DNA from: Psammoneis japonica
Taxonomy: Eukaryota
Assembly (NCBI GenBank): GCA_008632985.1
Contig: QPGO01000060.1
Location: 62,001 to 126,000 of the forward strand
Length of the DNA: 64,000 nucleotides
Reading direction: 5' to 3'
The stretch's first letter is position 1. Every line of letters starts with the position of its first letter. Positions 8,163-62,090 of the stretch are shown piece after piece. The notes beneath the pieces are model-generated. The model saw nothing but the letters and a program-made list of their open reading frames with translations, was not told the DNA's origin and did no database searches. The position numbers and the translations under genes are program-made.

Positions 8163-8575
8163 CATTCTCTGTGCAGGGACACTGTTGGATGTATTTCAGC
8201 AGAAGGAGAGCAGCATTGAATTTTGTCCATTGCAGTGTTTTCATGTGTCTGCAACATGCAGGTGCCCCCTTGTGCTTGATGCATGGAATTGCACCCTTCA
8301 AGCAAATCAATGCCCTCTGAATCCCAACAGGCTCTTAATGTGGTCAGACCACATTTGAAGTTTGAAGCACAAATGTTCTGCAGGGACACTGTTGGATGAA
8401 TTTCAGCAGAAGGAGAGCAGCATTGAATTTTGCCCATTGCAGTGATTTCACATGTCTGCAACATGCAGGCACACAACCTTGTGTTTGATGCATGGAATGC
8501 CATCCTTCGAGCAAAAACCAATGCCCTCCAAATCCCAACAGGCTCTCAGTGTGGTCAGACCACACTTGAAGCACA
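8163..8575. repeat. ~210-bp tandem duplication at the left edge of a TA-depleted block
   Basis: tgcagggacactgttggatg...tgtggtcagaccaca occurs twice (from ~8172 and ~8379). Confidence 0.9.
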
Positions 8576-8579
8576 AACA

Positions 8580-10840
8580 TTGGTGAAGTGAAGCAGAGCA
8601 GCTCATCACAACCAATTTAGAATGAGCGGGTCCACTCAGGCCGATCGCACAATGACAGCTTGTCCAGCCAACCAGTTTTTCAATGTTTGGTGCTGCATTT
8701 GAAGTGCCACCCATGCATGTCATTCCCTGCACTCAGACCATGAAACCAAATTTCCACAGCCACAGGTGATGAAACAAATGATGCTTGTGCAATTCAAGTC
8801 AAAAATCACAGGACCAAAGCACTCTGAGAGCTTTGCAGCTCAGATTGACACAACAAGCAAGGGGGCAACAATGTCCTGTGCTGACAACAGCATGTTTGGC
8901 ACCCTGTGCAATCTAGCCAGTGCTGCAAGAGCAAGCAAGAAGCATTGGGAGCCTTGTGTGCAGTGCCCTGTGCATGGACCCCATGAATCCTGCAGTTGCA
9001 AGCAATGCCAGATAAAGAAAACCCAAGCACAAGAAGCAGAAAAGTGATTTCATGGGATGGCAGCAAAAGATGCAGCAAACCATGTGTGCTCCCCCTGTGA
9101 ATGATCACAAAGACAACCTGTCTGCACTCCATTCTAACCAAAAGCTGCAAGCAAAGCATTTTCTGCTGGCTGTTTTGAAGCTGGTGTGAGCAAAAGTTTC
9201 ATGGAAGAAGATGAAGACACACACAACGCTTTTGCTGCAAATTGTTGTGTGCCACTCAACAGCCCAACGGCCCAATTCTTCCCTTTTTCCAATGCCTCTG
9301 TCTCTTAAATCCAAACAAATGCATGCAAAATTGCAAGTGGGCCCAGAGCAGAATGGCTCAGAAGGCAACACCAAAAATGCACCCTGCCACCTCAACCACA
9401 ATGCATTTGTGTTTGTGCAATGCTGCTCAGCATGTGCTGCAGCTTTGCAGCCACACAGCAAAGTGCGACATTGTGAGATGAGCATTTTTTTTTTTCACAG
9501 ACAAGACACAACAACTGCAAAGTAGTGCCAAGCACAAGCTGGGCATGCATGTGCAACAATGTTGAGTTTTGCATCATTGTGCATCTTCTGCCTGTGAGAG
9601 AAGACATGCATCTGTTGCTGTGGTTGTGGAGTGACATGGTTGTGAAGGGCTGGTTCATGAAAGAGCAGCATTCTCTTGCACACTCAACCACCAGATCAAT
9701 TGCCATTGCCATGCCTTGTTTGGCACCTCATTTCTGTGCTTCAATGAGCCTGGCTGGTTTTTGCTGTGGCGCAGCCCTTGATGAAATGATGCCTCATTGA
9801 GCCTGGAGGGGGCATGTCCTGCACCAAATTGGTCCATTCCCTGTGCAGTTCTTTGCAGTGAGTCAAAACAGAAGTTCCAGCTGTCATCTCAAAAGCACAC
9901 CTTTGGTGTGGTGAGCCCAGCTGGGCTTTTGTGGACCAGCTGGCATGGCAGCAGTGGCCTGGCACAACTGGCAAAGGCTGCTCAGTTGGGTCAAGCGCAG
10001 TTTCTTCAGCCACTGCCGCTTGGGTCCCATTGTTTGCAGCATGCCATTTGCCACATCATTGTTGTCAGGGGTCATCACTTTGCAGCCTTTGCACAGACGT
10101 GCAGCGCAGCATCCACCCCCGCCACTGCCTTTGCAGTCTGTTGAGCTGTCTTGCTCCATCACATGGCAAACGGCCAAGTTTGCAGTGCATTGTTTGTGCC
10201 TGTCCACACTTGAAGTTTTTGGCAATCCTCCTGCCCTGCACCATTCACAAGACACTTGGGAATGGCGCAAAAGAAAAAAATGCAAAAAGTTCTTGAATGG
10301 ATCGCCCAACAATTGCACCACAAAATGATGCAATGTTCCACCAAAGTCACACAGACATGTGTGTGAGCAACATGTGGCATGATCCAAAAAACTGTCAATG
10401 TCACAGTTCAGGAGTGTGAGGTCCCACCTGCTGGAGAGCTGGAATGCATCTTGATTTGGTTTAGAAACTGCCACTTGTGTCTGTGCTCCCAAACTCCCTC
10501 AAGCACAGGCATGAAGAACACCATCTTAAATTCTGGCCTCAAGAGAGACACAGCATTCAGTCAGAGACTGAGGGAAGTTCTAAAAAAGGTCCTTTCTTTG
10601 TCTCCTGACAAGTCTGAATTTCCCAATCACTGTCATTTTTTGTGTTGCTTCATAAAATTTCTGCAATGACTTTGCACATGGAACATTCATGGTGAGAAAA
10701 AAAATTGGTGCTTTCCAAATCATCACCAATTTCTTTGTGCTCCATGCGGCAGCACAGCTGCACAAAATGCAAAAAAACTGCCACCAAGCAAGGTGACATC
10801 TTGGTTGTTGAGATCCCTCCAGAACACAGTGTGTGGCATC
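8580..10840. mobile_element. Heavily mutated sequence of unresolved class (probably a decayed element)
   Basis: Near absence of TA and CG, with dense spurious C/H-rich ORFs. No motif I can assign with confidence. Confidence 0.35.
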
Positions 10841-10844
10841 TCTC

Positions 10845-12745
10845 ATCTGCATCCTCAAATGCCGCAGCTCTCTCTGGTGCCTTTGCCTTCATCAGCCTTG
10901 ATGACAATCCTTCCATGCAGCCTGAAGTTACAACTGGAACTCACTTTCTTGAACAGCCTGTTGGATCTCCATCCTTCACTTCCAACTTTCTTGAAGCCAA
11001 GATCTCATCATCTGTCAAAGCCCTTCAAAATCTCACCACTCATCTTAAAGACAAGCAAACTCAAAGTTGTCTCTTCCACCACTGTGCCATCCCCTCCATT
11101 GCCCACTTGCTTGCAGCCAACAATGCATGTCATGAGTTCAACCCTTCAACCCATTTGATTCCCCAGACCTCTTCCACTGGGCTTCTCAACTCACCAATGC
11201 TGTCATTGGCTGTTCTCTCTACTTCCTCTCCTGCCTTGCAGCCGCCCCTCTTCTGCTCCTGACTTCTGCCCTCCTCATCACCTTCCTCCCCACTCCCCTT
11301 GGCAGTGTTGCTGGTTGCCGTGATGCACCTGCTTCTGCCATCTTGTCATTCCTCTCCTCTCTCATGTGCTCTTTCCACTTCACAAAACATGGCATTTCTT
11401 TGGTTGGATGCCAATGCTTTCACCTCCCACCCAGCTGCTCTGCTGCTCTTTCCTTGTGGTCTGACCCATGCTCCACCATGTGCCTCTGCACCATCTTTCA
11501 CCACCTTGCCCCCACAACCCTCTTCTCTCTTGACTCTCCTGCCCTCAGCTCCCTCCCCTCTGCTGTGTGTGACCACAATGTGCCCACTTGCACCACCACC
11601 AACGTGACACTCTCTTGCTCCTCCAAAGCCACCAAGACCTTTGCCACATCCTCCCTTCCCTTCTGTCACTCCTTGCAGGTCTTTGCCTTCACCCCCTCTC
11701 CCGCTTGAACCATCCAACTGCCCCTCTTCTGCTTGCTTCACCCTCCTCCTCTGAAAACTTCATCTCCCTGTCTTTCCTCTCAATCTTTGCCAACTGCCAG
11801 GCCCACGTGGTTGCTGCATCCCTGATCCCTGTGGTGACCATGCCTTTGCCTGCTCCAAAATGTGCAAAGGCCCTCTTTCCAATCACATGCATGACGCCAT
11901 CCACGCTGTCATCAAAGCCCTTGGCTGGTGCCCCATCTGGCCTTTGTCACTCTCAACAACACATTTTCCTTAAGCCTGTTGGCCTTCTCCTTGTTTTCCC
12001 ACTAAAACAACCTGCTGACATGATGGTGCCTAACTCGCCACTGGCTCCACCCCTCCCAACACCCATCTGTGCACAACTTTCTCGCCACCAATGTCACAGC
12101 ACCTCTGGCTCCTCCTCAGCCTGCATCTGGTTTGCCTGCCCCCCCCCACTGGCCTCCTGTCCAAGGCTCACCTCAGCAGTGTTTGGGAAAAGCTCATTGG
12201 CAGTTGCAAAACTTCTTCCTCATGTGGCTCCTTCATTGTCTCCTTGTCCATCAACCAAGCTGGCATCTTTCTCCCTCCACTCGCCCTTGGCCATCTGGGT
12301 GGAGCTGGGCACCACTTCCACATCCTTTCTTTTTGGCCATCACTCTCATGCTGCTGCTGCTGCCTACCCCCTCCACCCAAGCCACCTTGGACTTCCCCTG
12401 CTGATTTCTCTCACTCCCAAGTTTCCCACTCTGCTTTCCAACCCTCGCTCCTCGCCCCTGTTAACCTCCTTCTTCTCGACCACGCCAATGTTGCCTCCTG
12501 GAAACAACTGTCTCCCAACCGCTTTGGTTCCTCCTATTTCTGCTCTACCCCCCAACCTTGGGTCACCCAACTCCTCAGCCTCAACATTGGATTGGCTCTC
12601 TCCAGCCATCCATCCACATGCGAATCCTTTCTTTTCTGCCGTCGATCGATCGCTCGCCACTTCTTCCCGCCCGTCTGTCCGCACCACCGGCCCTGCCTTT
12701 TTCAACGCCATCCCGCACTATCCTTCCGCCCTTTTCCGCATCAAA
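10845..12745 (+). mobile_element. 5'-truncated, decayed CRE-like non-LTR retrotransposon (RT C-terminus, CCHC knuckle, restriction-like endonuclease)
   Basis: DDNPSMQPEVTTGTHFLEQPVGSPSF...KDKQTQSCLFHHCAIPSIAHLLAAN aligns with DDPTLHPKITTGLCFLGQPIGSPAF...HDTQTKSSLCRTCAIPSLLHLLASN in the 53-kb element. DPCGDHAFAC at ~11820 and KQPAD at ~12005. Confidence 0.8.
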
Positions 12746-12758
12746 ATGTCCATTGACC

Positions 12759-14660
12759 ATGGGGAGCGGCACGACCTTTTCTCAATACAACAACGGCAGA
12801 CGGTTCCTATTTGTCTTTTTGTTGTTTGTAGTTACTCTGGTATTGAGAATTGCCGTAAATGTTCCAGGTGGCAGCAGCAGCGTCTCTCCAAGCAACGCGA
12901 AAAACGAAAGTACTATTGATTCGTCGGCTTGGAAGTACACAGGCGACGATGATCCGACCTTACCCAAGCCGTGGGTAGCGTCTGCCACCAAGTGGTGGAA
13001 TGTGCACAATACTCTTGTTCAAGAAGTAAAATCATCATCATCATTGAATCATCCAGAGCTGATTTTCTATGGCGATAGCATTACCGAGTCTTGGAGAGGA
13101 CAGACCTTTGGCAGTCTTCCCGGTCCGGGGAGAAAGTGGAAGCCAGGTGAAGCGCAGCAGATTCGCGACATTTTCAAAAAATACTTTGGAAATGCATTAG
13201 CTCTTGGTATTAGTGGAGATCAGACGCAGCACTTGTTGTGGAGAATGCAAAATGGAGAGTTTCCAGACTTCAATTCTACTCAAAAAAAGGTCTTTGTTGT
13301 CATGATTGGAACAAACAATATCGGTGGCGGGACTTTACCAGATGACACGGTTCGTGGCATTGATGCGGTTGGTCAGTATATTTTAGAAAAGGGTGACCAT
13401 GATTTGCTGCTGAACCAAGTCTTGCCTCGCTATGATTCTCAACGTGTCCAACGGCTTTGCCCGCCACGGTGCAACAAGAACGGAGATCCCTTCCAGTCAT
13501 TTTTGCCTGCAATTCATAAAGTCAATGATGCTCTGCCAACTTTGGTGGAAAGGTGGAGAGAGGATTACAACAATAAGGATCAGCGGATTGCAGTATCGTC
13601 GTGTGGATCAAACATTTTCACACCCGACGCCGTGGAACAAGTCATGCCGGATCACTTGCATCCAAACTCACAAGGGCATGAATTATGGGCAAAGTGTCTG
13701 TCCAAGCACATTGCAATGCTTAAATCAAACAACTCTCTTCCATTGGTGTTGACAGAGGATGGGGGCGATGACAAGAAGAAACGAGATTCACTGCCGACAA
13801 CAATGACAAGGCATGATCGGTGGTACGAGCTACATGACTCGTTGGTAAAAGAAGTGGAGGCATCAGACAAGGCAATAGAAAAGGAGGCAGACGGACCACC
13901 ACAGCTTGTGTTTTACGGCGACAGCATAACAGAGTCTTGGAGGGGAACAGGATTTGGCAGTCTCCCGGGCCCATCGCGACAATGGCATCCGGGCGAGGAT
14001 GACGAGATTCGACAGGTATTTTCGAACTACTTTACCAACATAACGTTTGGCAAAAATGAAGAATCCAACTCGGCGCCACTTGTACTGGCAATTGGTGGAG
14101 ATCGAATTCATCAGTTGCTCTACAGAATGAAACACGGAGAGTTCCCTACTTCCAACAGGACTCGAATTTTCATCGTTTTGATTGGAACCAACGACTTGAG
14201 TAGAGGCATGCTGCCTTCCAAGACGGTTGAAGGCATTCGTGACGTGGGCCAGTACATTTTAGAGCGAGACGGACAATCTCATTTGTTGCTTTGCGAATTG
14301 CTTCCTCGATTTGACTCGTACATTGTCAAGGGCGTCTGTCCACCACTTTGTGACAAGGATGGAAGGCCCTTTCGATCCTACACACCTGTCATTAAACAAG
14401 TCAATGATCAACTTGCAGGTCTCGTGAAACAATGGAGACAGAGCTTGGACACTAAGATTCAAAGAATTGCTGTTTCATCTTGTGGATCTTCTATTTTCAC
14501 CCAGGACAACATGGAACAAGTCATGCCGGACAGATTACACCCGAATGCTCGTGGACTCGAACTATGGGCTCAGTGTCTTTCCAAACATTTAATTCGTCTC
14601 GTGATGCAAGATCCTTTGCCATTGGTTCTATTCAACGACAACAAAACCCGAGCGAGATAA
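12759..14660 (+). CDS. Membrane-anchored protein with two tandem SGNH/GDSL hydrolase domains (PAF-acetylhydrolase IB-like)
   Basis: Probable ATG at 12759 followed by a hydrophobic stretch. Two complete motif sets: FYGDSITE, G(I)SGD/GGD, IGTN and MPDxLHP. Confidence 0.92.
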   Translation: MGSGTTFSQYNNGRRFLFVFLLFVVTLVLRIAVNVPGGSSSVSPSNAKNESTIDSSAWKYTGDDDPTLPKPWVASATKWWNVHNTLVQEVKSSSSLNHPELIFYGDSITESWRGQTFGSLPGPGRKWKPGEAQQIRDIFKKYFGNALALGISGDQTQHLLWRMQNGEFPDFNSTQKKVFVVMIGTNNIGGGTLPDDTVRGIDAVGQYILEKGDHDLLLNQVLPRYDSQRVQRLCPPRCNKNGDPFQSFLPAIHKVNDALPTLVERWREDYNNKDQRIAVSSCGSNIFTPDAVEQVMPDHLHPNSQGHELWAKCLSKHIAMLKSNNSLPLVLTEDGGDDKKKRDSLPTTMTRHDRWYELHDSLVKEVEASDKAIEKEADGPPQLVFYGDSITESWRGTGFGSLPGPSRQWHPGEDDEIRQVFSNYFTNITFGKNEESNSAPLVLAIGGDRIHQLLYRMKHGEFPTSNRTRIFIVLIGTNDLSRGMLPSKTVEGIRDVGQYILERDGQSHLLLCELLPRFDSYIVKGVCPPLCDKDGRPFRSYTPVIKQVNDQLAGLVKQWRQSLDTKIQRIAVSSCGSSIFTQDNMEQVMPDRLHPNARGLELWAQCLSKHLIRLVMQDPLPLVLFNDNKTRAR

Positions 14661-14841
14661 TGCAATGCTCGCGGAAGTGGTCCCCAGAACTTAGCATGCT
14701 GAGCATGATGCGATGTCAACAAAGCTTAGATGCCTTTAATGCCAAATGACTGTTGGAATCTTTAAACTTAAACTGTAGTAAAACTGCAATAGGAGAAGCA
14801 AGGAAACACCAGTTTCTTCTGATCAAAAGTTGTCCTCGGTT

Positions 14842-17300
14842 CTAGTTCTCCTCCATGGGTGCGTTGTTCGCGAACGGCAGTTGGGTTTGGAAGTTTTCGA
14901 TGACTCACTGTCGGGTGAATTCGAAAGGGGAAGGGGCAGCATTCGAAGCTCGCAGTGAGTGTAAGTCGCCACTCCGATGCGACAGAGGAAATGCGATGGC
15001 TCGATTCATTTCACAGGTTTCGCGTCTTCAGGCATCAAGATGAGCCGTCAGTTGCTCCCAAGGCCATTTTGGAAAAGGGACATGGCCCTGGCTCATTGTT
15101 GATGATCTCAATTTATTCCGATTGCTCATTCCAAGGATTCTTCATTTGAATGACTTGACGAGCGTGATGACATCAGCGACACATCGAGTGACAATGCAGA
15201 CATCTCAGGGTCTTGAGGAGCATCAACAGCTTTCGCACCATTCACAGCTGTTGGCAAGGTGCAGGTGGCTTCATCAGACTTGGCTTTTGCAATTGGAGCC
15301 CCTGTGACTCCGATGTGACCAACCTTTTGGCTGGCACCATCTGCAGCCCAGCTGCAATGGTGGATCCCATGTGTCAAGACTTGTTTCTTAAATATTGCTT
15401 GAGGGCCCGACAAACCTTCGGTCCCACAATCGCCAGCAGACTGGCAGTTGAGAAGATCCAGATCAACAACGTGTGCCCAAAATGCATGGCATCAACCAGC
15501 GAGTCATCAAGAATTGTCAACACAAGAACAGCAACACCGATTGCATGTGCTTGAATTTGAGCACAAATCACAAACAAAATGTTGTGTGGGGCTGTGTTGC
15601 TCAAAAGCTTGTGCCAGATGTCAATTGTTTTGAAAGAACACCATGCTGCCACCAGTGCTTCTGCAAATGTGAGAAGCCCAATCCAAGAACCAAGTGAAGC
15701 CCATGTGTGATCACTGGTGCATTCTCCATGTGCTTCAGAAGTTACTTCTGAGATCTGTGCATGCTCCCACATCCACAGATCAACAGCTGCCCACAGAATT
15801 AAACAATGATTGCTGTGACAAAAACAATGAGTGGGTTCATCAGCTGCTTGTCAGTGGGCTTTGTGTTCACTAAAATTAAAGCAACTGGTTGAGTGGCAAG
15901 GCCTTGGTCACAAGTGCCATGAATGCAACAATGTCAACAATGTGGCTGACAAAGAAAAACCAAGGTGCCCCCATGGATGCTGCATCAAGCTAACTGTCTG
16001 ATGCTCCCACGTTTTCATCACACGATGGCCTGAAAATCATGGCTGGGTTTGTGATGAGCAAACCCATGTGCAAAAGGAAGAAAAAGAAGAATGGCTGTTT
16101 TTTGCTGACCAAAGCCACTCCATTTGGTCAAACACCAATGCCCCTGTTGACAGCCTGTCCAAGGAAGATCCTTCCTCCACCTCATCAAACAAGTCATTGA
16201 GTCAATGGCCCACATGAAGAGGAGCTTGTTTTGGCAAGATGATGCAGAGGCAAGCTTCTCTCAGTGGGTCTTGCCCCATTGAGTGCTTCAGCCACATTGT
16301 CCAACACTTTCAGACATGATGGTGGAAGTTCAAAATGACAGTCACAACACCTGTCTGCCAAAGGCTTCTTGCCACAGCTGCACTTGCATGTCTTCCCTCT
16401 TTTTCAAAGGTTCACACCAAAAAAGTTGGAGTTTTTGTCCACAATTTTGACTGGCTCTTTTGCCAAATCACTCAAGCTGTCATGACCACAATTTGCAACA
16501 GTGACAAAGTGCCACCCCTCTCATTGGAGAAGCTTCTCCATCACCTTTATTTGGCCTTCAGCAACAACACTGTGGAAATGACCTTGTCTCCATCATTGGT
16601 GAATTTGTCAAGTTCTGTGGCACAAAACAAGAGGTTGGTTTCAAGAGCTCTGCCATCCCAAGCAGGGTTTGCAATTGACATGTGTGGCTTGACTCCTCCA
16701 ACATGGAAAAAGCTGCAAACAGCCCTGCAAATGTTGTTGTTGTGTGAAGTTGTTGGGGTTGTGTTTTTCCACACAGAAACTTGCCTTTCCACAATGTCGG
16801 CGCCATTTGACCTCAAAGGCTTGTCATTGAGATCAACAAAAACATAAAATCATTGGGATGCTCCTCCAAAAAGCATTTGCAAAAAAGCCCCCCCTTGTTC
16901 TCCTTAGCTGAGCAGGTTGCTTACATTGTTTGCCAGGATGGAAGCATTGAAAGCTTCACAAAGTTTTGAGTGGAATGTTTCTACAACAAATTTATTTTGC
17001 TTGGAAATTGCAATGGCATTGGGGATGGAAAGTGTTTTCACATTGTGCAATTGCACAATGCATTCAAGTTGCCTGAAGACAGACAAGAAATTTGCTGAAA
17101 CCAGAAACACAATGAGAACAATTGGTGCTGTCAGTTTCAGAGTCGGCAGCTTTTGCTCTTTAGCAGCCTCACTCATCATTGCATTGCTTTTCCTCCCTTT
17201 GATCACCTCAATCCAATCACACTGCAAGCTTTTGGGGCTTGGTCAGAAATCAAATCATTCAGAATTGAGTTGCACTGCAGTTTGAGTCATGAAATTGTTG
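14842..17300 (-). pseudogene. Hypermutated class C (GABA-B-like, 7tm_3) GPCR pseudogene; ends approximate
   Basis: Fragments in the expected order: QPFFFFFLLHMG...SCDENVGASDS*LDAA, PWFFFVSHI...ALVTK, WEHAQISEVTSEAHGECTSDH and FGHTLLIWIFSTASLLAIVGPKV. Stops, frameshifts and no Tyr. Family recognised from memory, not by a search. Confidence 0.7.
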
Positions 17301-20300
17301 AAAATGCCACCCCCCAATTGGAGCACATTGCAATGGCAACCAGGGACACAAATGTCCCTGGACGGCAACAACAGCCAGCAGACAGTCAAAAGAGTGGAAA
17401 GACTGCAGGAGCCACATGACTTGTCCTTGGAGCTGCAAAAGCTGGACACATCTGTGGGAGCACCCCCAGCAGCCCCAGCAACAACCACAACAACCTGTGC
17501 CAGGCGCAGGCAGTGCAGCCATTGCTGGCACAGTGGCAGCCACCTTCACAGAGCCAACACCACCGCTGACAGCACAGCCAGCATTTTGACCAGTGGTGTT
17601 TCATGGCCAAGTCACTGTGTGCCACCAGCTTTTTGCTGACACCACTGCAAAGACCCCTCAAAGGATCAGTGTCTAGCCCAGCAGTGTGTGCAGCCCATGA
17701 GGAGGCCCCACTCAAAGGGAGTGCACCCCGAGGAGCTGGCACTCAGTCATGGCATGTGACATGCCAGCACACCCATGCAACAAAATTTGCTTGAGGAAGA
17801 ACAAAGCACACCCACATGTGTGCATCATTGGGAAGGTGCAGCTGAGCATGGTGCCATTGCCTTTCAATGGAAGTGTGTGCTTGTGAAAGATGTGTGCAGC
17901 AGGCAAGCCCTGCAAGCCATGGCATGGCCCCAGGATGCGCACCACACATCATCAATGCCACACAAGCACTCTTGCCACAGTTGTTTTGATCAGCTGCCAG
18001 TGGTGGACCTGGCACTGGCGACAGTTGAGCTCTTCTTTGAAAAATTCATGTCTGGAAAGCCCCCATGCTTCCACCAAACAAGTGCTGTCTGCTGTTGTTT
18101 GGCACAGGGATGCTGTCACAAAGGCCAGCAAGGGAGAGAATTGGAAGAGCCTTTGCAAGTGAAGACTGGGCTGCTGACCATCTCAGCCCCTTCATTGACT
18201 GACTCTGATGTGCACCCACCTGCCACCCAGCAAAAGCCAGCAACCAGCCTTTGGTCCACCCACCTGTGTCACCTCCCATTGTGGCACCCTTGTTGGACAC
18301 ACAAGCTTTCAGTGCATGCTGGTGTGTGTGCTGATTGTCAGAGATCTGCCAGATCTTGCCACCATGTGGTTCTTGCAGCAGGAGTCCAGCAGATTGCAGC
18401 AGGCCCAAACACACTTGTTGCAGACACATGTGCTGCCCAATTTCAGGAAAAGACCAACAATGATGGGGGCATGAGTGAAGTCATGCACCAACGGTTCACT
18501 GCAGCTGCAGAGGCAGATGCATGCACCACAGTCAGGCAGCATGGGGACAAGACCTCCTGCCAGCACACATGGCAGCTGTGGGCATGCACCAAGAAGGGTG
18601 GCACCCATGCTGCCATGCAGACACATGTGCAGGGCACCTGTGAGCAGCTGGGGTGCCCGCATTTCACCATCAGGATTTTGTCCACATCACCAAAGAAGGC
18701 AACTGAAGTGCATCTCAGCTTGCCACTGCCAGACAACTTGCCAGAGGGGATCAAACCGTGCGTTGTTGGCTGTGTCAGCCAAAGCTTGGTGGCACCAAGT
18801 GTCACAGTCATGCAGACCACATGGGGTCCTCCACAAGTGATGTGGCCATGCTGCTGTGCAAGCAAAGACCACTTGCCAGTGGGCATGAGCCCCGTGGGTG
18901 ACACCACTGGGAGCATGCTGTCCAGCAGAGTTGAAGTGGGCATGCCCCAGGCAAACGGCATTGCAGCACCTCACCCCATGCTGCTCTTTGTTTGAGAGAC
19001 ACAGCTGTTCACAAATGGCTGGTTCTTGTGAGCAGCAAATGGATTTGCTGGCTCCAGCCTCCATTCCTCCACATGTTGGCAGAGCATGACATTGCACATG
19101 TGGGCACTCCCACTGTTGTGAAAGAAGGCATCATTTTCCCAAAACATTGTCCAAGAAACAGGAAAGCACTGAGTTGTTGACACAAATGACAAGACTGTTT
19201 TGGCAGCATGCACAAGTTGTGCCCCAGCCATCCTTCAGGCACTCCTCATCCTCAGGCATGGATTTTGAATGCTGTCATGATGCTTGAATTGCAGCTTTGA
19301 AATGTGACCAAGTGAGTGTGGGATGAGGGTCACAGTTTGGCTGCAGTGGGGCTTCTGGTTTGATCAAAAATTGATGCCTGCAATGTGATGACTGCCACAA
19401 ACATGTCTGACCCACGGTGTGACAGGTTAGAAAGAGACAAGGGCACACTTTCTGTTGCTGAAGAAAAAGTGCCATCTGCCTCAGTCATGATCACAATGAT
19501 GACTGATTGTTCCAAAGCATCTTTGCAGTTTGACAACAAGCATGAATCAAGTGCTTCTTTGACAATAAATGAATGAAGCAGCCTTCCACATCCTCACCAC
19601 AATGGTGCAATTGCAATTGAAGTTTCATCAAAATTCAATGCAAGAGGACACAAACAATGCAGCTGCACCTCCCAGCACAGCTGCAGTTCCTGAAACACAA
19701 CCAGCAATCTCAGAGGATCCACATGGAGCTTCACTCCACCACACATTCCATCTCTGTGGCACTTGCTTTGCTGGTGAAAGACAGCCAAAGCATGAAGGCC
19801 AAAGCTCTGGAAGAGTGATTTCAACAAATCAAAGACATGTTGACAGACATGCAGCAGCAACCAAACAAAGATTCATCAGACACTGCCACAGCCACCTCTT
19901 CCACACCAGAGAATGCCTGGCAAACTCAAGATGAAGCTTCATGCCCTGGTTTTCTTTCTCAATGCCTTGAGTCTGTCAGATCAAGAAATGTGACAACAAG
20001 CTCTGAGCAGTGGCATCTTGAGCCACCTGTGGAGAATCCAAGTCTCTTGAGAGGGGCTTCTTCTTGTTTTCAGGACCCACCTGCCAGTGGCAACAGGTCT
20101 TGGGAGAAGGATCCTAGAAGTGATGAGCAGACAATCAGCGATGCAAAAGACTGGAAACTGTCATGCAGGAGCACCAACTCCACTGTGGAAGAAACTCAAG
20201 ACAAGGCAGTGGAGGTAGAGAATGGCTCTTTTGAGCATGCCAAAACAAGAAAACTTTCTGTCAGTTCTGGTGTCACATTCTCTGGTGAGGATCCCATGGA

Positions 20301-51599: not shown

Positions 51600-54500
51600 T
51601 TGAGTTCAATGAAGCGGTTGCAGATCCAACCCCAGAGTGAACCCCGGCCGCTCCCAACCCCGCCACTCCTCCTCTGCATCCGCCAACTCCACATCCAACC
51701 CTCCATCCTGGACCCTCGTCAGCCACAAACGCCGCAACACTGACAGCACCCCACCTGGCCCCTTTGACACCATCCTCAATGCACCTGTCCCTCCATCCCA
51801 GCAAGACATTGATGGAGACTGTGTGTCCAATGATGCACGCATGGACAACCTCACCCTCTTCGGCAAAGACGATGACCCCAACGACAACACCGATGCCACG
51901 AATGTGATGTCACAATGTGACATCAACCACTGCGCCACCCTCACCACATGGGTCCACACCCATTGCCCTGAGTGCCTTTGAGAATGGAAGCGCATTAAAG
52001 CTCGGGCTGTTGAAGACAACACCGATCCGCAATCTTTCCACCAGCATCTCCAAGAGTGGAACCCCCAAGCACCATGTGTCTGGAGTGCCCACACTGTGAA
52101 TGGTCTCCACCAGAAAACACTGCCACCCAAGACCTCCCCAAGGCAGTCCGAGCTCACCTGTGGGCCAAGCATAAAACCCCAGACCAATGCTTTCTCCAAC
52201 AAGACTTCCTCTCCCAAGCCAACCCACACTCATGCCACATCTGCAACTCTGTGCCTGCGCCCTGGCAACCTGCGCAACCATGTTGCCCGCCATGACCCCC
52301 CCCCCCCCGCACTGAAGCAAACTCTGCTTTCTCTTTGAAGCACTTGTCCTTGCTCCGCCTCACTGCTCCCCCACCACAAACCCCAAACGCTGCCCACCCG
52401 CTTCCTCCGTTGCCTCAACATGCCTCAAACTCTTCCAACAAGGGTGCACCCGTGAACTGCATGACACAGCATGTGCCACCACCCCTCATTCAGCTCCCAA
52501 CACCAATGTCCCTGACTTCTCTGCTTCCACCTGCTGCCACGCAGCTCAAGCATCCGCAGACACTGACAACTTTGGTGCAGCTTACCGCCGCATCACCTCC
52601 AACCTCCCAGTTGCCACCATTGATGATGCCCACCTCCAGCTCATCCACAAACTGCACCCACCTCACGCACCACGCCCACCCCAAGTGCCCACCACCAACA
52701 CATGACACTCCACACCTCCCCCGTCCCCTCCATGCATCTCCGATGACCACCTCCTTGCTGCCCTCAGCAAGTGTAAACCCGGCACTGCCACCAGCCCGCA
52801 TGCTGACTCCACCGACCTCCTCAAAGGCCATGCCCTCTGCAAAACAAGCACCCCCACGAAGCCACAACTCCGCCCACACCTTGCCACCTTCAAAGAATTC
52901 TTGATGATCCTCCAAACCAATTCTGTCCCTCCTGACATCCAGCCACTCATTGCCGCCAACCACTTCATGGCACTCCACAAAGACCCCACCAACCTTGACA
53001 AGTTGCGACCCATCGGATGTGCAGTGCCACCATCCGAAGCATTGCCGACACCCTTGCGATGACCATCAATGCACCTGCCCTCAGGGAACACCTCCTCCCC
53101 AATGGACAATTTGGAACAGGTGTCAAAGGCGGCCTCGACTGCCTCATGCACGCCACTCACGCCAACGTCGAACACTGCCTCAACACTGCCACACCAACCC
53201 ATGCCTTCCTTGCTCTCGACCTGTTCAACTTCTTTAACGAATGCTCACGCAACACTTGTCGGGAATTCCTCAACAACACACCTGCCTTCAGACACCTTGT
53301 CCCCATCTTTGACCTCTGCTGCAACACGACAAACATGTGCTGGCACCGCGATCCAGATGGCAACTGGCGATTCTTCCTGCAACCCGAAGGCTTCTCTCAA
53401 GGATGCCCACTTGCTCCTCCGTTCTCCACTCTCATTTTAAGCATCATCCTCAAACAACTCAATGCTGAACTTTGCCAATGCCTCCCATCCTCCAATGTCA
53501 CATCAACTGCCTCCCTCATCGATGACACCAGCATTTGGCTCCCGCACACCAAACTGCCATGGTTCCCACAATGCCTCAAGGAATTGGGCCCTCAACATGG
53601 CGTCCGCCTCAATCGCTCCAAGACACACATGCTCACCTCCATCACCAGCACTGGGCCCTCACTGAACCTGCCCCCAGCAAGCGCTGACACCCTCTGCCAA
53701 GCCCTGTGCTTCCTTGACCCTGCTGACGACCCCACTCTGCACCCCAAAATCACCACTGGCCTCTGCTTCCTTGGCCAACCCATCGGCAGCCCTGCTTTTG
53801 CCCGCACCTGCCTTGAGCAAAAAGCCACCACCTTTCACACTAACCTCAACCGCCTCTCATCATGCCTGCATGACACCCAAACCAAAAGCTCCCTTTGCCG
53901 CACCTGTGCCATCCCATCACTTCTGCACCTTCTGGCATCCAATGTCCACTTCAACTTTGACCCAGACAACCACCACCCCTCACCTCCTGGACCTCACCTT
54001 TCCAACAAGAGGCCCAGTGCCACTGCGATGCCTGCCTGCAACATCTTACAGCACAACAACAGCCATTGCCACCATGCGCCATGCTCCTTGCTCACCTCCC
54101 CACATCCTCCGGCGGCATTGGCCACTGATCCACATCCACCTCCGCCATCCCCTTTCTTGTCTCTCAACTAGCCCGCTCCTTTCGACATGCAACACATGGA
54201 CCAACTGCAGGCAATGACGACTCCCTCAAACTCCCACCCTTCTGCGCTTGCTCCCTCCACACTTGGGCCACCTCCCGCCGCCCCCTGTGCCTTTGTCAAG
54301 CATTTCAGCACTGCAGAACAGCTGCCATAAACACCCTTGACCCTCCCCCACCCTCCCTCAAGGCCCTCATCAAAACACACCCGTTGCGCAACCTTTCCCA
54401 CACCCTGTGTCATGCACACTTCCAACTTTGTGCTCGAAGACCTCTAACTGCATGGACTGCCACACGTCACCCATGCACTCCCCTCCCTTCTCTCTCCACT

Positions 54501-55555
54501 TGCAAGTCTCACACTCCACTCCCTTGCCCGCTTGCTGCCCCAACACAATGCCTGAACCCTGAGCAGTTCCGCCTCGTGCTGCAACGCAAACTGCAGCTCC
54601 CCATCTCGCCCAACCAGCTAGAGTCCACCTCTTGCCCCTCTTGCTCTGGCACCACTGACCCATGCGGCAACCACGCCTTCTGCTGCCGATCACTCGGACA
54701 CAAAACAACCATGTCCAATGCCATCCATGATGGCCTGCATGCTGCTTTCCAAACATTTGCCCTGCTTTCCGGCATCTGTGCTGACTCTTCCGCCATGCAT
54801 CATGAACCAACAAACCTGATGCCTCATTCATCCCACAAACGCCCTGCTGATGCAGGCATGCAACTTGCCCCAGCCGCCTCTGCTGCCTCCCCTCTCGGCC
54901 ACCGACACCTCGCCATTGATGTCACCATCCCTGAACCTCCCCCATTGCCTGCTCCTGGCTTGCCTGCCCCCACCCTTGATCCTCACACCAAGGCACACCA
55001 TGCAAGCACAAAATGGAAGTTCAACAGAACCCATGAGACTCAAAATGAAGCAACCCTTGCATCCGCCCTTAACAACACCGGCATCCACCTCATTTCCTTC
55101 ACCATCGACCATCTGGGAGCCCCGGGCTGCTTCGCCCATCGCCTTCTTTTTGGCGCCAACCAAGACCACCCCATCCCTGCCCCACCTGCCCCACCCTGGA
55201 CCACTGAAACCTCCTTCATGCACCCAGCTGCTCACGTGGCTGCCTGTGCCTGCGCCCAACAATCCCCGTCCGACAACCTCCCTGCTGCCACTGCCACCTG
55301 GCAAACCATGATCTCTGCCGAACGCTTTGGCTTGACCCGCCAGCACTCTTCAACTCCATCACAATGGGGTGTTCAAAGCCTGAGCCTTGCTGTTGCCAAA
55401 TCGCTCGCTGACCAACTAACCCGCTGCTCCACCAAACTGCAATCTCAAACATCCAACCCCAACTCGAAATCCATCCCTTTTCCTGCCCACATGACTCAGC
55501 ACAGTTCCACCCTTGCTCCGCGTCTGTCCCTCCCCCATGCCACCAGGTGACGTTG
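51600..55555 (+). mobile_element. Near full-length CRE-like non-LTR retrotransposon (zinc fingers, RT, CCHC, restriction-like endonuclease), mutated
   Basis: C2H2 fingers CPHC...HLWAKH and CHIC...NHVARH. RT motifs LRPIG, QFGTGVKGG, LDLFNFFN, GFSQGCPL and LIDD. CPSC...DPCGNHAFCC. Endonuclease motifs KRPAD and AIDVT. Confidence 0.9.
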
Positions 55556-55565
55556 CACGTGAAAT

Positions 55566-55757
55566 CGAACAAATCTCAATGTAACAAAAGAACAAGCACG
55601 ACACCTTACGTCCAACAGAAAGTTGTGACACTGTCAATGCAAACCCAAACCTGATTAGATTGTGTGCGTGTTGCTAGAACACCACTCGATGCATGCATGT
55701 TGACCAGTCACCAATCACAACATTGTCCTCCCTTCCTTCTCCATCCAGATTCACTCG
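55566..55757 (-). repeat. Copia 3' LTR
   Basis: Aligns to 62105-62298 with 15 substitutions and one 2-bp indel by my count. Confidence 0.95.
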
Positions 55758-55920
55758 GTCCCCGCGAAACGGCAATGACAATGCCGATTTGTCTAAACCC
55801 ACAACATCCTCTCACAGAGAGGTAAACCACAAAACCCAAATTAAACCACCAGACATGCTGGCTTGGGAGGCCGAGACACGTGGGTGCAAGCCACAGGTGC
55901 CTGGCCTTGGTGTTGGAACA

Positions 55921-58900
55921 TTGCCAAAAGATGCACGAGCAAAGCTTCCATCGCCGCTCTCCTGCAACCATTTTTGCAAGTAGATCTGCCAAGTTTGTTT
56001 CCGTGTCCTCCTTGCCAACATGAACAATTCCCGACCGCTTCTCGCACAACATGGTGGTTGATGGCATCATGCTTCTCATGCAAAACCAACTCAGGCACAC
56101 TTGCATTCTTCACAACACCACGATCATCACAAAAGACACTTGCCGGTCCTTCAAGGGGAGCTCCAAACATGCAAAGCTTGTGATGCAAAGCGACAATCAA
56201 CTCCTTGCAAATCCGCATCGCAACCAATTCACTTCCAAACGTCGCCGATTCCACCGTGTTCTGCGGCTTGCTGAACCACACCACTGGTGCGTTGTTGACA
56301 AACATCAGAGTTCCGCTGTGCGACCTGCGAGTTACGACATTCCCTGCATGGTTAGCGTCAACAAATGCACAGATGTTTGCCGGGTTGCCACGAGGCTTCG
56401 GTGCCCATGGTGGCAGTTCCTCCTCAACGTCCCTCTAAAACTCGGTCCAGTCTGCATTCGAATTGAAAATGGATTCATCAATCACCGGTTCTTTCGGATC
56501 GAATCCAATGCGTCCAACGTTCTGGTGCTTCTTCACATGCGCAAATGCATGATGTGATGCTTCAAGGTGTCCTTTCCTTGGATTAGCTTGACATTGAGAT
56601 AGGATTGAAACCTCATGCAAGATGTCGGTGCGACCCAACTCGATCGCCCACCGACAAATCCCTGTCAACTGTAAATGCCTGTCCACCAAGTCGGGGCCTA
56701 GCTCGTCTGTCACGTCCAGTTCCGGTTTGTGCTTCAGGGGCAGTGGATCCTTTGCACTGTTCTTCAGAACTTCTCCATTGCCGTCTTCATCCAGCAGACC
56801 CTCCACAGTCTTAATTGCCGATTTGGCATATGACCTCGGTGAACTCACCCAGATTGTGCGCCCATCCTGAGTCTGAACCTTCTCAATGTTAGCTCCAAGA
56901 TGAACCTCTGGCTCTCCTTCGCTGCCGGGCTTCACAGCATGGTGCTCACCTGTTGCAGCAACAATGGACTTCCCTTGATGGGAAATGATTGGCACATCGT
57001 CAACATAAACCAAAAGCATTTCACAATGCTCATGCCCATCTTCACGAGTTGCCGCACGCAAGTGAACATCTGGATCCGCTCTCGTCGATTCAAAGCCTGA
57101 GTCACGTGGGACCGATGACAGTGCAGACCTCCAAGACCATCCCGAGCTCTTCAAGCCACATGACGCCCGAGTGACAACAAGCACCTTCCCTTCACACTCG
57201 CCGCATTCCTTTCCGCCTTCGAACCATGTCTTCTCTGCGCACGGTGCATTGAGACAAGCATTCTCCAGATCAACCACTGTGACATCGATTCCATTCAAAG
57301 CTGCCAGCAAGAACCCAAGTCGCACACTGTCTCTAGAAACCACGCTAGAACAAGCAATCGATGCCGGAGCCTCTGTCGTGTGGCCGCCAGCTACAAACCT
57401 TGCCTTTCTGGTGAAATCCATTTTAATGTCAAACACCATGTGGCTCCTGATCTCCTGACAACCACGCAAAGTTGCACCTTTGCTTTTGTCATCTCCTTGT
57501 TGATTGCACGAGCCCAACAGTCTGTCCCCATTTCCTGGTCTATCTGCAAAGCGTCCTCCATTGACTTGGGTGATCGGATGCCAAACTTGTGAGTCGTGCG
57601 CCAGTGCTTCTTCTCAACCTTGGATGCAATGCGATTCCGTTTGCGTGGGACATGCGTGACCCACCAAGCAAAAGCAGGCTCCTCAGTCAACCTGTTCGCA
57701 ACAGCACATTCAGCAACTTCAATTGGGTTAGAGTCCTTTAGATCTTTGAGTTTGACCCAAGATGAGCTGCCATCCTTCCATCTGACCAACAGTTTCCATC
57801 CTTTTGTCGTGATTTTCTTCTTCTCCTTCCCGTCAGTGGTTCGTACGGTGCCATCAGCAACCGACACTGCATCGTCACTTCTCTCGTGGTCCTGTATTTC
57901 GTGTAAGATGGAACACTGGTTGCCTTCGCTGTCGACCTGAGCGAACATGTTCTCGGCAATTACATTGGCTGTGTGCTTGTCTGTGGTGCCGTCGGTGCAT
58001 TCCACTTCGTGTTCGCGAGTGTCAAACAATGGGTTTTGATGCCGAGTCCCAATTGGACGTCCATCCTGTCCTCTTGCACGTTTCGTTACAACACCGCGTC
58101 GTTCACCGTCGGTTCCAACGTCAAACATGAGTTCCATTCCCAGGCATTGATCAATTGCCTGTTCGTCATCATCGTCCGGTCGTTCGTCGGGTGATGGCAT
58201 GTTGCCACATTCCTCGTCCTCAGGCATGATGCCACCCTCACATTCCACACCGGGGTTGCCGTCAATTGCAAGATTGTCCAACACGAATGCAGGTGCTGCT
58301 TCATCACCCTGCAAGACAAAGTTAGCATCATCCAATCGCTTTTCCAGCTGCTCATTAAAGTTGTCAATCTTAACGCGAACATCTGGTTGCACCACATCAG
58401 CCTGTGTCACGTGCTCAACGGATGTTTTGGAGACAATCTTCCCGCTTTCCGCAACAATCCAACAGCACGTGTCCGAGCCAACTTTGTGTGAGATGCCAAG
58501 CCACCGTCCAAGCCTTCGAGGGTCATCAGTTGCACTCGGCTTGTTGGGCCTGTCCCACCACCACACCATGTCGCAGAAACCAAAATCTAGATGCTCGCCT
58601 GTTTCTGGTGTCTGTCCAGTGACCTCTTCACATCTGGTCCTCTTGTCTCTGCCTCTTGCCATGCGCGACACTAATTCCGACTCACAAATGAGACCAAAAT
58701 CCCATGATCGTCTTGGCACCTTCTTCTTCATCATTCGCAGCTGCCAACACTTGGCCAAGAAACCAATTTTGCGCTCCGCTGCCTGGCTCTGGTTCTTCCG
58801 ACCCTGTTCCGATGTTCTCAACTGCATTCTCACATGTCGTGCATGCCTTGCAAACTCGGTGCTCTTTCCAGTGAACTCTCCTGCCCCATCCGACATGAGA

Positions 58901-61642
58901 TGTTCTGGTGCACCCACGTCGTCTGTGAATTCAACGAGAGACAAACCTGCTTCCGACCTTGTGGTCATCGGCACAACCTTCACGAATTTGCCCTGAGCAC
59001 AAACATTGGCACACGTGTCACCGAGTGGGGACTTCACCTTGGATGTCAAAGTGTCCACAAACCATGTTCCTTTCAGATGCTTCCGGTGCAAGTCGAGGTG
59101 ATCCACCCTGACTCTTCGTGACATCGGCTGGGTCGCCGTTCGCATGCCGCGCTGAGCAGCTACATTGAGGGTGTCTTTTGCCGTTTCCAAACCGACACTC
59201 CATTTTCGAGCCAACTCTTCAGCGTCAACTTTCAAGTGCCGATCCTTGCTGTGTGGCTCTTTGATTGCCCTCTGCCTTTTGTCCACGTTGTCGAGACACG
59301 TGCAAGCCACATTGACTGAGCTGATGAGCCTGTCACAAAACGATTGAAGTTGACAGATGGGGGACATAGATGACAGTTGCATTTCGACCTTGCCCCAGCG
59401 AGCTGCTTGGGACTTCGCCTTCTCGCTCCTTAATTCCGAGATCTGCTCTTGTCGCATGCCAGAGGTTGATGATCAAACAGTGCGCATCTCCGCCTGCTCT
59501 CTAGTGCGCTCCGGTGAGCCCACATCCATCTGTGCTGGATCCCATGCGTCACCTGTCAACAGCATAACCGGCAAGTTCTGCACTTCCCAATCCATCGGAA
59601 CACGAGACTTGAAAGACACAATTGTCCCCGTGGCATTAAAGGGGATGAAAGCTTCATCAGCTTCAATGCCAAATCCGTTTCGAGTGTCGTGAGGGTTGTC
59701 GTGTGCGGGCATGTTGTGCGCACGAAGTTGGTTGGGGTTCAAAAGCAAATGTTCCATGTTGGTTCCAAACCAGAGCATTTGGTCACCAACCAGCAGATGT
59801 TCACGAGTCGTTTCTGGATCTGTCCATGCCGTGCAACAACGTGCCACAGGAATCTGTTTGATCGGCTCATACGAGTCCAGAAACGGATGTACTTCGCACA
59901 CTTCATTTGTCATCTCCACAAGCTTCCAGTTCGCTCCAGCGCAACAGGTGTCCGCGTGAGTGTCACATTCATTTCGAGCAACAAACCGGGTGTCGTCAAA
60001 TTTGTCATCTGTGCGGAACTCGTCGATCGGATCACACGTTTTGATGTCACAGCAATGTGCCTCTTTGTCACCTTTTCTTTGAAACGAGATTTTGGGTGGG
60101 GTTTGGTCAACAGCAAGAAGAGCAACACAAGCAAAAACGACAAGTGCACCAAATGCGCCAATGCTCCAGTGGCTGTTGCCACCCCAAGAAGTCAGGTGGA
60201 ACCATCACAGGCTCCCCGGCCAAAGACACGTCCATTTCGTCCACCGCGATCACGGTCAGCACCGCGACCACGCCCACTGCTCCTTTGCTCCTGATCCTGT
60301 TGTTGGGTTTGGCCTTGGCCATCTTGACAAACTTGGGTTTCGGCTGCATGCCTGCCGCCCCCATCACGTCCTTGTTGACCTGCGGGAGGCCCACAGCCTC
60401 CACCGCGTCCATGTCCCATTCGTTCGCGAGCTTGGAAAACACAGCTGATCCCTCCATTAAACTGTGACTTTTCCCATTCTTGAGCACCAAAGCTCCTTGT
60501 TGGGTTGGATGCATCAACTCCATTGATCATTGCAGTGTGGTTGCCACCCCTGCCTTGGCGACCACCACCACATCCACGTCCACCCCAACGTCCAAATCTT
60601 CCTCCGCGACCACGACCTCGATGGAAGCCACGGCCACCGCCGCCACCACGGCTCATTTCAGAAATCTTGCGCTTCGAGCAATGCCGGGCTTCCAACTGAG
60701 CACCTGCATGTGAACGAGAGACTTCGGATGAGAAACAAGCATGTCAACTTTCCATTGTTCAGATTTGCAGTCATCCTGTGATTTGTTCAAAGTGGCAAAA
60801 GCATTGGCAAGTTTCTCATTGAACTTTTCAAACGGGAGTGATCCTTCCTTTTTGTAAAACAAGGTGTCAATGGTGGCCGCAGCCAGATGAATGCGCTTGC
60901 TCAACTCGCCCTGTCCGTTGCAATGGTCGACCCATGCATTGAATGCTCCATGTCCATCTTCTGTCACATCAAACGGTTTGATCCATGCCCATCCCGCTGT
61001 GTCGACCAAGTGTTCCTTCAACACACGACAAACGCTGCGGTTGTCCTCATCAAATTTGGCACCATTCAGTGGCATCTGGCACATGCGCTGCTGTTGAGCA
61101 TTTGTGAATGCAGCCGGAGCTGGCATCATCCTCACAACGTGGCGAAGGGGCTCTTTCAACATGCCAAACTTCTGTGCCAGGAGATTCAAGAAAGCGTCTT
61201 CGCACACATCAAAGTCATCAGACTCAAACTTTACGAGACCGCTCGCCGATGCGTCCGAGTCCGTGAGCTCCTTTTCGACACGTCTGCCATCTCGGGCCGC
61301 AGCCACAGCTGCCACATTAAAGTTTGCCGCAACCAATGCCTGATTCCGTTTGAGCAAATCCTGGCACCACCATGACAATGCCTGCAAGTTCTTGATTTGA
61401 ACAGTTCCAAGAGTTGCACGTCCGTCGGCTGCCGTGCGACGAGACGCCCTTTGCGCCATGTCTTCCACATCATGGTCACTTTCCATCACTGCGATGTTTT
61501 CTAAAGTCGCAAACCCTTCATAGAAAACCAACCTCGCCCTTGCGTTTTGGTCAGCAACACCACAAACTTGTAAAACTGCATCAACATCAGCTGCCGCGGC
61601 TGATGCCGCAAGTGCTGCTGCTGGTGCTGCCGCTGCTGCCAT
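55921..61642 (-). pseudogene. Copia gag-pol polyprotein with frameshifts and stops
   Basis: ATG at 61642 (MAAAAAP...); DTHADTCC; LLNPNQLR; SDGAGEF; KARFVAGGH; LVYVDD; QNTVESATFGSE; NLADLLAK. Confidence 0.92.
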
Positions 61643-62090
61643 CCCACAACAAAGAAAGGGCACAAAGGTCCCGCACCGGGAACACACAGTTGTGAGTCTG
61701 CATGGTCATGGAGGCCACACTTTCTCTATGTTGTGATGACGGGTTCACACAGCCACCCGACGTCAGGGTGATCAGTCCTGTGTCGTTCATGTCAACCGAC
61801 ATTGTTGGGCACACGCTCTCGGGCATGTCACCCAATGCCGCAGTCCCCTCACACCCGTTGTGCATGTGAGGATAGTGACTATCTTTGCGAGCATTGCCAT
61901 TGCAAGCTGTTTTTGTGGACATCATAATGAGCGACACGAGACGCATCTTCGTGCGCATCAATCCGAGTTCTGACGCATCGCGCACATTCCAGTGCCGTTT
62001 CTACAGCTGCACGTTCCATGCAAACAATGCAACAAACAATCGTCCATGACGAATTGTATTTGAAACCATTTCATTCTGTCTTATCGTCAT

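Follow-up and report, generated by a model that had tools for sequence, protein, structure and literature searches.

The 64,000-nucleotide stretch analysed here (the window) derives from the diatom Psammoneis japonica (GenBank assembly GCA_008632985.1, contig QPGO01000060.1, positions 62,001 to 126,000 of the forward strand, numbered from 1 below) and contains three blocks, termed A, B and C, in which the dinucleotide TpA is nearly absent. Block C takes in a Gypsy long terminal repeat (LTR) retrotransposon, a young Copia LTR retrotransposon in the opposite orientation and, between the two, unclassified repeat DNA with an open reading frame (ORF) for an RVT_1-type reverse transcriptase (RT), and block B includes the remnant of a second, older Copia pol (Table 1). 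These four elements lie inside the depleted blocks, and the host genes for a GDSL/SGNH esterase, an Argonaute protein and a NYN/RRM protein all lie outside them. An original prediction, made from the letters alone, had read the pattern as a regional hypermutation of TpA to TpG or CpA (A:T→G:C); that process is the subject of the present analysis.

Table 1. Features of the window with the evidence and properties recorded for each (o/e, observed/expected ratio).
Feature	Position	Strand	Evidence and properties
Block A	8193..12786		Change points and composition; TpA o/e 0.08, CpG o/e 0.18
Block B, old degraded repeat DNA	14844..31710		Change points and composition; TpA o/e 0.06, CpG o/e 0.24
Old Copia pol remnant in block B	20683..24305	-	tblastn with Copia relatives, best E 9e-67
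Block C	42420..61873		Change points and composition; TpA o/e 0.10, CpG o/e 0.62
Gypsy LTR retrotransposon	42092..47736	+	LTR pair, Pfam; internal TpA o/e 0.12
Gypsy LTRs, 185 bp	42092-42276 (outer), 47552-47736 (inner)	+	LTR pair
Gypsy RT/RNase H ORF	44434-46107	+	Pfam
Gypsy integrase ORF	45939-47210	+	Pfam
Unclassified repeat DNA, 7.8 kb, between Gypsy and Copia	47737..55561		TpA o/e 0.07
RVT_1-type RT ORF	52999-54168	+	Pfam; within 47737..55561; 0 Tyr in 390 residues
Young Copia LTR retrotransposon	55562..62298	-	LTR pair, Pfam RVT_2, tblastn 55898-60057; internal TpA o/e 0.15
Young Copia LTRs, 198 bp	55562-55757 (inner), 62101-62298 (outer)	-	LTR pair
Young Copia RT ORF	56438-57613	-	Pfam RVT_2
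GDSL/SGNH esterase gene in spared host island	12787..14843	+	Pfam PF13472, PF00657; ~30 TpA per kb
AT-rich 2.5-kb unit, 39% GC, flanked by 256-bp direct repeats	31773..34279		Repeat pair, 92% identity
Argonaute gene with PAZ- and Piwi-coding exons, in spared DNA between blocks B and C	37160-41818	-	Pfam; spliced contig in run X2
NYN-domain and RRM-domain ORFs, adjacent	634-2129	-	Pfam

The TpA o/e ratio per kilobase was 0.00–0.20 across 8–12, 15–32 and 43–62 kb and 0.26–0.63 in the other parts of the window, and the borders of the three blocks were placed by likelihood change points. The blocks hold 208 TpA in 40,915 bp (5.1 per kb), compared with 831 in the remaining 23,085 bp (36.0 per kb); at the density of the flanks, 1,473 would be expected in the blocks (Poisson P ~0). 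About 85–95% of TpA is gone from the Gypsy element, the two Copia elements, the one other RT-bearing element and the unclassified repeat DNA. The scan and the change points together bear out the claim that TpA is nearly absent in three regions and normal in the neighbouring genes, and the further claim that several element classes in both orientations are affected also holds, as the Gypsy (+), Copia (-) and RVT_1 elements are all depleted. The borders of block C lie about 330 bp inward of the outer end of Gypsy and about 425 bp inward of the outer end of Copia, i.e., within the elements, and the depleted domain ignores element ends. These data support a regionally targeted depletion with borders sharp to a few hundred bases, which spares a 2-kb island with a host gene. 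Stop codons follow the same pattern: TAA and TAG make up 29/212, 91/910 and 176/1,034 of the stop triplets in blocks A, B and C (~10–17%), compared with 256/570 (45%) in positions 1–8000. The predicted scarcity of TAA and TAG was thereby recovered, whereas the prediction that ORFs fill all six frames held only moderately, with 3.93 ORFs (≥ 100 aa) per kb in the blocks vs. 2.12 elsewhere in the window.

The Pfam scan covered 149 ORFs across the three blocks. It found no family in the 23 scanned ORFs (≥ 100 aa) of block A, where tblastn gave no match to Gypsy or Copia relatives either, and no credible family among the 68 scanned ORFs of block B. A single sub-threshold line for HalOD2 in block B (E 0.0092, 16.3 bits vs. 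a cut-off of 27) was rejected. The old Copia remnant was not detected by Pfam on ORFs and was recovered by tblastn; beyond it, blocks A and B are without a recognisable domain.

The depletion is specific to one step. Among the 16 dinucleotides, only TA (o/e 0.08 in the blocks vs. 0.49 in the rest of the window) and CG (0.41 vs. 0.89) drop, and only TG (1.78 vs. 1.25) and CA (1.62 vs. 1.26) go up, while the block-to-rest ratios of the remaining 12 stay at 0.88–1.12, those of AA, AT and TT being unchanged at 1.02, 1.02 and 0.99, respectively. All four TAN contexts are strongly affected, with survival relative to the flanks of 0.04 for TAT, 0.11 for TAC, 0.16 for TAG and 0.25 for TAA, and the order is mirrored on the opposite strand. 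The CpG ratio is low in blocks A and B and milder in block C, in which the two losses are uncoupled (TpA o/e 0.10, CpG o/e 0.62). Since the loss of CpG is unable to explain a six-fold drop in the TpA ratio, the CpG→TpG/CpA decay is a second, ordinary process superimposed on the first and strongest in the older blocks. The original prediction had overlooked this decay, although its reading of the TpA loss held. As for the choice between the two products, the strand bias of TG vs. CA follows the intrinsic GC skew and is within the range of host genes. A dependence on the flanking base (TG after TAY, CA before RTA) was sought in tetranucleotide gains, which were too noisy against the host-gene baseline, and in the outcomes at Tyr codons, which gave a non-significant trend only. 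We note that block C contains opposite GC skews, from +0.28 to +0.45 at 48001–50000 and from -0.32 to -0.48 at 52001–56000; the asymmetry of TG and CA accounts for only about one quarter of the skew at 48–49 kb, and the remainder is intrinsic to the repeats there.

The direction of the change can be read from conserved tyrosine codons. The Gypsy ORF was aligned with its 60 best relatives, and a column was counted as a Tyr column if at least 70% of the relatives carry Tyr. At the 18 conserved Tyr columns, the window copy has Cys at 9, His at 5, Phe at 1 and Tyr at 3 (14/18 Cys or His), whereas 30 Gypsy relatives treated alike show Cys or His in 26 of 562 cells (Fisher P 1e-14). The Copia RT, aligned with 94 relatives, has Cys or His at 10 of 13 Tyr columns, Met at 1 and Tyr at 2, compared with Cys or His in 74 of 1,251 control cells, 22 of the 74 coming from two Tyr-free relatives. 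The predicted conversion of conserved Tyr to Cys or His is borne out by these columns, and all seven strings quoted in its support (HIDD, CTDASDH, AHWSKKL, ASCGLK, ACLNA, AECA and AINHH) were found in their places. A residue count of the 557-aa Gypsy ORF likewise confirmed its 4 Tyr, next to 25 Cys and 25 His. In tblastn comparisons, for which ten Tyr-poor relatives (see below) were left out, Tyr is retained at 12% in Gypsy, 7% in the young Copia and 2% in the old Copia, with Cys and His together at 58%, 48% and 50% of the Tyr positions, respectively. Phe is retained at 59%, 41% and 35%, and Trp at 81%, 67% and 56%, in the same order. At the Tyr cells of its relatives, the old Copia has His in 32% and Cys in 18%.

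A context test was made with every Gypsy replacement that is explicable by a single nucleotide change relative to the consensus of the relatives. The largest single class of these is A:T→G:C (26 of 56 replacements), of which 25 of 26 occur in a TpA context, or 11 of 12 without the Tyr codons; the non-Tyr cases include Ile→Val, Thr→Ala and Met→Val with T as the final base of the preceding codon. A→G was found 16 times after T and once in another context, and T→C 9 times before A and never elsewhere. The enrichment at TpA that the original prediction had proposed as a check is therefore present. A change confined to TpA is not the product of generic GC-biased gene conversion, which is also ruled out by the dinucleotide counts, where just TA is affected among the dinucleotides made of A and T only. 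The results support a change from TA to TG or CA that affects both strands and elements of either orientation. To our knowledge, ADARs are confined to animals. An ADAR-like A-to-I editing of retrotransposon RNA prior to reverse transcription would suit retroelements as targets and the preference of ADARs for U before the edited A (cited in 10.64898/2026.01.13.699255); however, the sense strand shows both A→G (16) and T→C (9), and both Tyr→Cys (9) and Tyr→His (5). Such editing becomes very improbable in light of the LTRs described next, which differ within one insertion, and of a depleted domain that crosses element borders.

The two LTRs of one retrotransposon are copied from a single template and are identical at integration. 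In the window, the mismatch columns between paired LTRs fall into the TA/TG/CA/CG classes in 16 of 18 cases for Gypsy and 14 of 16 for Copia (30/34 together), showing that it was already integrated, chromosomal DNA that changed, and on both of its strands. At 3 Gypsy sites and 1 Copia site, one LTR carries CA and the other TG, so that an ancestral TA must have been hit twice, independently. Among 14 visible ancestral TpA sites in the Gypsy LTRs, the outer copy retains 11 and the inner copy 3; among 15 in the Copia LTRs, the outer copy retains 14 and the inner copy 4. Together, the inner LTRs have lost 22 of 29 and the outer LTRs 4 of 29 (Fisher P 3.5e-6), and the intensity is set by position within the transposon cluster, not by element identity. 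Divergence outside the four classes is about 1% (2/185 for Gypsy, 2/198 for Copia), compared with a 73–79% loss of TpA in the inner LTRs, which suggests that the TpA change in the LTRs runs roughly two orders of magnitude above background substitution, a rough figure from few sites. The LTR differences bear out the earlier claim of a DNA-level process rather than RT error or RNA editing and, with the hits on both strands, exclude pre-integration editing of the ADAR/APOBEC type.

A sequencing or assembly artefact, i.e., modified bases miscalled in long reads, would be in keeping with a depletion that is extreme and restricted to probably modified, silenced DNA. However, contigs from run X1, a set that behaves like accurate DNA reads (its 4,486-bp host contig, at word depth 59.7, is identical to the window), match 47709–48155 and 49408–49700 at single-copy depth (59 and 68), likewise with 0 differences, and the TpA o/e ratio of these two intervals is 0.12 and 0.00, respectively. 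The accurate reads thus carry TG or CA rather than TA, which settles the check for a long-read base-calling artefact, and the changes are coherent at the level of codons and of LTRs. In addition, Illumina data from the alga Bigelowiella natans yielded the same signature (10.64898/2026.01.13.699255). An artefact is therefore largely refuted, and we give it almost no weight.

The signature is not a general property of related elements. Among 31 related Gypsy loci from metagenomes, found with a Tyr-poor relative (P0110, whose own contig is not one of the 31) as the query, none is depleted in TpA (o/e 0.48–0.98). Seven of the 31 (L009, L011, L012, L013, L017, L021 and L031) have CpG ratios of 0.02–0.22 with a normal TpA ratio of 0.62–0.79, which shows that CpG can decay in other hosts while TpA is kept. 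Among protein relatives, 2 of 120 Gypsy sequences (P0110 and P0176) have 0.8–1.1% Tyr, and 8 of 150 Copia cluster representatives (P0260, P0285, P0288, P0299, P0317, P0323, P0337 and P0366) have at most 0.4%. All ten are rich in Cys and His; P0110 has Cys or His at 14 of 19 Tyr columns, with choices that differ from those of the window copy. Since the ten are mutually distant (33–65% identical to one another and to the window), they point to at least ten further hypermutated lineages in public data.

The spared DNA includes repeats as well as genes. The AT-rich unit abuts block B, yet its TpA content is normal, with 9 and 10 TpA retained in its direct repeats, so that not every repeat is a target; 5 of the 10 mismatches between these repeats are outside the TA/TG/CA/CG classes (5/261 columns), and no Pfam domain was found in the unit. 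The Argonaute gene is represented in run X2 by a contig in which four introns of 75–93 nt are spliced, and its location beside silenced transposon blocks is probably a coincidence. Run X2 is RNA-like and has no cover over the transposon, which has no bearing on expression. The NYN and RRM ORFs are probably exons of one gene for an NYN/RRM RNA-binding protein. The esterase, the Argonaute and the Gypsy pol all have their nearest named relatives in diatoms (Cyclotella, Thalassiosira, Cyclostephanos, Chaetoceros, Dactyliosolen, Corethron, Stephanocyclus, Nitzschia, Cylindrotheca and Pseudictyota), at identities of only 32–63%. The genes thus mark the host as a diatom with no near relative sequenced in the database, and as distinct from Bigelowiella. 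Elsewhere in the flanking DNA, the 1-kb window 4001–5000 has a lowish TpA o/e ratio of 0.28 without CpG loss, a 500-bp tandem duplication (79% identity) lies at 3777–4775 with a (GTCG)n run at 3788–3880, and a 33-nt in-frame repeat of 5.8 copies occupies 7057–7248 within the ORF 6759–7949.

Taken together, the interpretation given in the original prediction is supported. We assign a probability of about 0.8 to a targeted, post-integration A:T→G:C process at TpA, the same as that in B. natans, which likely proceeds by adenine deamination and acts in silencing-marked domains; adenine deamination and a role in genome defence are what we infer from the pattern. What the data show is a mutational process of this diatom nuclear genome that converts A:T to G:C strictly at 5′-TpA-3′, in integrated chromosomal DNA, on both strands and within transposon-filled domains. 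Each hit removes its own target (TA→TG or TA→CA), so that no CG arises and the process is self-limiting. Tyr codons become Cys or His codons, with the RT motif YxDD turning into HIDD, and TAA and TAG are erased with no stops created. In the proposed mechanism, the lesion would most likely be an enzymatic deamination of adenine to hypoxanthine at TpA, for which an ADAT2/TadA-like enzyme or a different deaminase may be responsible. Silencing chromatin, DNA methylation or small RNA may mark the domain, and such marking would leave the outermost 300–400 bp of the transposon cluster under-exposed.

Several observations weigh against this interpretation. The AT-rich unit is at least as diverged as the LTR pairs and is untouched, a selectivity that is unexplained. 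The rate estimate stands on just 2 mismatches outside the four classes per LTR pair, and run X1 may be the assembly's own sample and hence not an independent culture. The remaining difficulty lies in the Gypsy family. The summed depth of X1 contigs over Gypsy is about 2,000–4,000, compared with about 60 for single-copy DNA, which indicates a family of tens of copies, and 797 of the 925 variable places among the family contigs are transitions. When the window copy was compared with the family at the best-supported 40 of the 925 differences, i.e., the near-fixed ones, only 3 had TG or CA in the window and TA in the family and 4 had the opposite, TA in the window and TG or CA in the family; the others comprise 21 in other contexts, 10 cases of CpG decay private to the window copy and 2 with CG in the window and TG or CA in the family. 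Moreover, the Tyr codon at 45718–45720 is CAC in the window and TGC in at least 92% of the family depth, implying either that the choice of product is strongly biased by context or that many copies go back to a source that had itself been mutated before. Some of the TpA loss may therefore have been inherited rather than acquired at this locus.

In its full form, an inherited composition would mean that the families were TpA-poor before transposing, because hypermutated masters amplified or because UpA was selected against in RNA. At some sites nearly all of the family depth is indeed TG or CA where the window has TA or the other product, and since no stops are created, mutated copies retain long ORFs. 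However, the paired LTRs have diverged at 11 and 10 of the visible ancestral TpA sites, and strongly asymmetrically between inner and outer copies, the replacement of catalytic and other conserved Tyr residues (YxDD→HIDD) should disable the RT, none of the 31 related loci is TpA-poor, and the depletion spans unrelated element classes and unclassified DNA and is not bounded by element ends. We consider this explanation improbable.

A further difficulty for the proposed deamination is that a lesion on A and one on the paired T yield identical sequence outcomes. The same targeted process could thus have its primary lesion on thymine in silenced repeats, through a TET/JBP-type dioxygenase or another thymine-modifying enzyme, with 5-hydroxymethyluracil (5hmU) or a further oxidised thymine sometimes pairing with G and giving T→C; 5hmU is not known to be strongly mutagenic. 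Because the same base pair is changed, the TpA data fit this chemistry as well as adenine deamination, and the CpG and TpA decays would then both lie on the pyrimidine of a pyrimidine–purine step. A dinoflagellate TET/JBP enzyme makes 5hmU, which silences transposons, and older work cited in the same paper places 5hmU preferentially at TA and TC (PMC11572971). However, there is no TpC effect in the window (TC o/e 1.00 vs. 1.14) and CC is hardly altered, and we regard a thymine lesion as unlikely.

Returning to the targeted A:T→G:C process, we tentatively propose, at somewhat less than even odds, an enzymatic genome-defence pathway common to diatoms and chlorarachniophytes that is steered by chromatin or small RNA to edit chromosomal double-stranded DNA at TpA, and that may be old in SAR (stramenopiles, alveolates and Rhizaria). 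If this is true, it would amount to a naturally occurring editor of adenine (or thymine) in DNA and, in its chemistry, to a mirror image of the repeat-induced point mutation (RIP) of fungi, by which transposons and viral inserts are disabled permanently without stop codons. A natural A:T editor in the TpA context would be of interest to the base-editing field, and the search for the enzyme is tractable, as genes common to both hosts can be compared with those of diatoms whose transposons retain TpA. There are also consequences for annotation. Hypermutated blocks defeat domain-based annotation of transposons, Pfam being blank here over 21 kb that include the old Copia pol, and they generate spurious ORFs rich in Cys and His and bias composition-based analyses.

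Among known systems, fungal RIP (Neurospora etc.) is similar in being a post-integration, DNA-level process of dinucleotide-specific transitions that inactivates repeats and fades toward the edges of its target. The chemistry, in contrast, is the reverse: RIP changes C:G to T:A (CpA→TpA), raises TpA and generates stop codons, whereas in the window TAY has become TGY or CAY, TpA is lost rather than gained, and the TpA process cannot create stops. According to PMC9998398, many diatoms carry DNMT4, a possible relative of RID without a known function, and diatom transposons are CpG-methylated by DNMT5a. The deamination of 5-methylcytosine at CpG also feeds TpG and CpA, and blocks A and B clearly show it, but CpG decay cannot remove TpA. 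The ADAR and APOBEC systems of animals resemble the present case as deaminase-type hypermutation against selfish nucleic acids, and ADAR shares the preference for U before the edited A; unlike the change in the window, which is on both strands of integrated DNA, they act before integration on RNA or single-stranded cDNA and are strand-asymmetric.

The closest system is that of B. natans, for which the main text of a preprint (Mettrop et al., 10.64898/2026.01.13.699255) reports that, in mutation-accumulation lines, 231 of the 302 new mutations in the nuclear genome lay in an integrated nucleocytoplasmic large DNA virus (NCLDV) and a virophage. Of these 231, 230 were A→G or T→C, all at TpA, at a rate of about 6e-7 per site per generation or about 1000 times background. 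The B. natans genome contains 124 clusters of TpA-poor, CpA+TpG-rich windows, its TpA-poor coding sequences are enriched in RT and DDE Pfam families, and an ADAT2 homologue was proposed as the deaminase, as a candidate only. The cut-offs used there for a cluster (a run of three or more adjacent 1-kb windows, each with TpA o/e ≤ 0.43 and CpA+TpG o/e ≥ 1.52) are satisfied in our window across 8–12 and 15–32 kb; across 43–62 kb, TpA o/e is always ≤ 0.20 and CpA+TpG is 1.48–1.79, with six windows at 1.48–1.50, narrowly below 1.52.

The two cases agree in the A:T→G:C change at TpA that gives TpG or CpA depending on the strand, in foreign or mobile DNA as the target with normal flanks, and in a rate excess of two to three orders of magnitude. 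We note five differences. First, the host here is a diatom, i.e., a stramenopile, whereas B. natans is a chlorarachniophyte (Rhizaria). Second, LTR retrotransposons and old repeat DNA are hit in the diatom, compared with NCLDV and virophage inserts in B. natans. Third, the depletion here is near saturation (o/e 0.06–0.10), whereas the NCLDV region of B. natans stands at 0.45. Fourth, the process was watched in mutation-accumulation lines there and is deduced from sequence here. Fifth, CpG decay accompanies the loss of TpA here, whereas the main text of the preprint contains neither 'CpG' nor the words 'diatom' and 'retrotransposon'.

The original prediction had pointed to the absence of a described system of this kind in diatoms. 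Full-text literature searches and term look-ups in diatom transposon papers found no diatom report of TpA hypermutation, but the same signature is already in print for B. natans, and since a process of this kind was published in 2026, the claim of novelty must be lowered. The only report of the signature that we found is this one preprint on one alga, to which the diatom, from a different major lineage and a group that is ecologically dominant, adds a second, saturated case. The process is thus neither a peculiarity of Bigelowiella nor limited to viral inserts, and LTR retrotransposons are hit hard enough for Tyr codons to vanish. What is new here is the host lineage, the targets and the saturated state.

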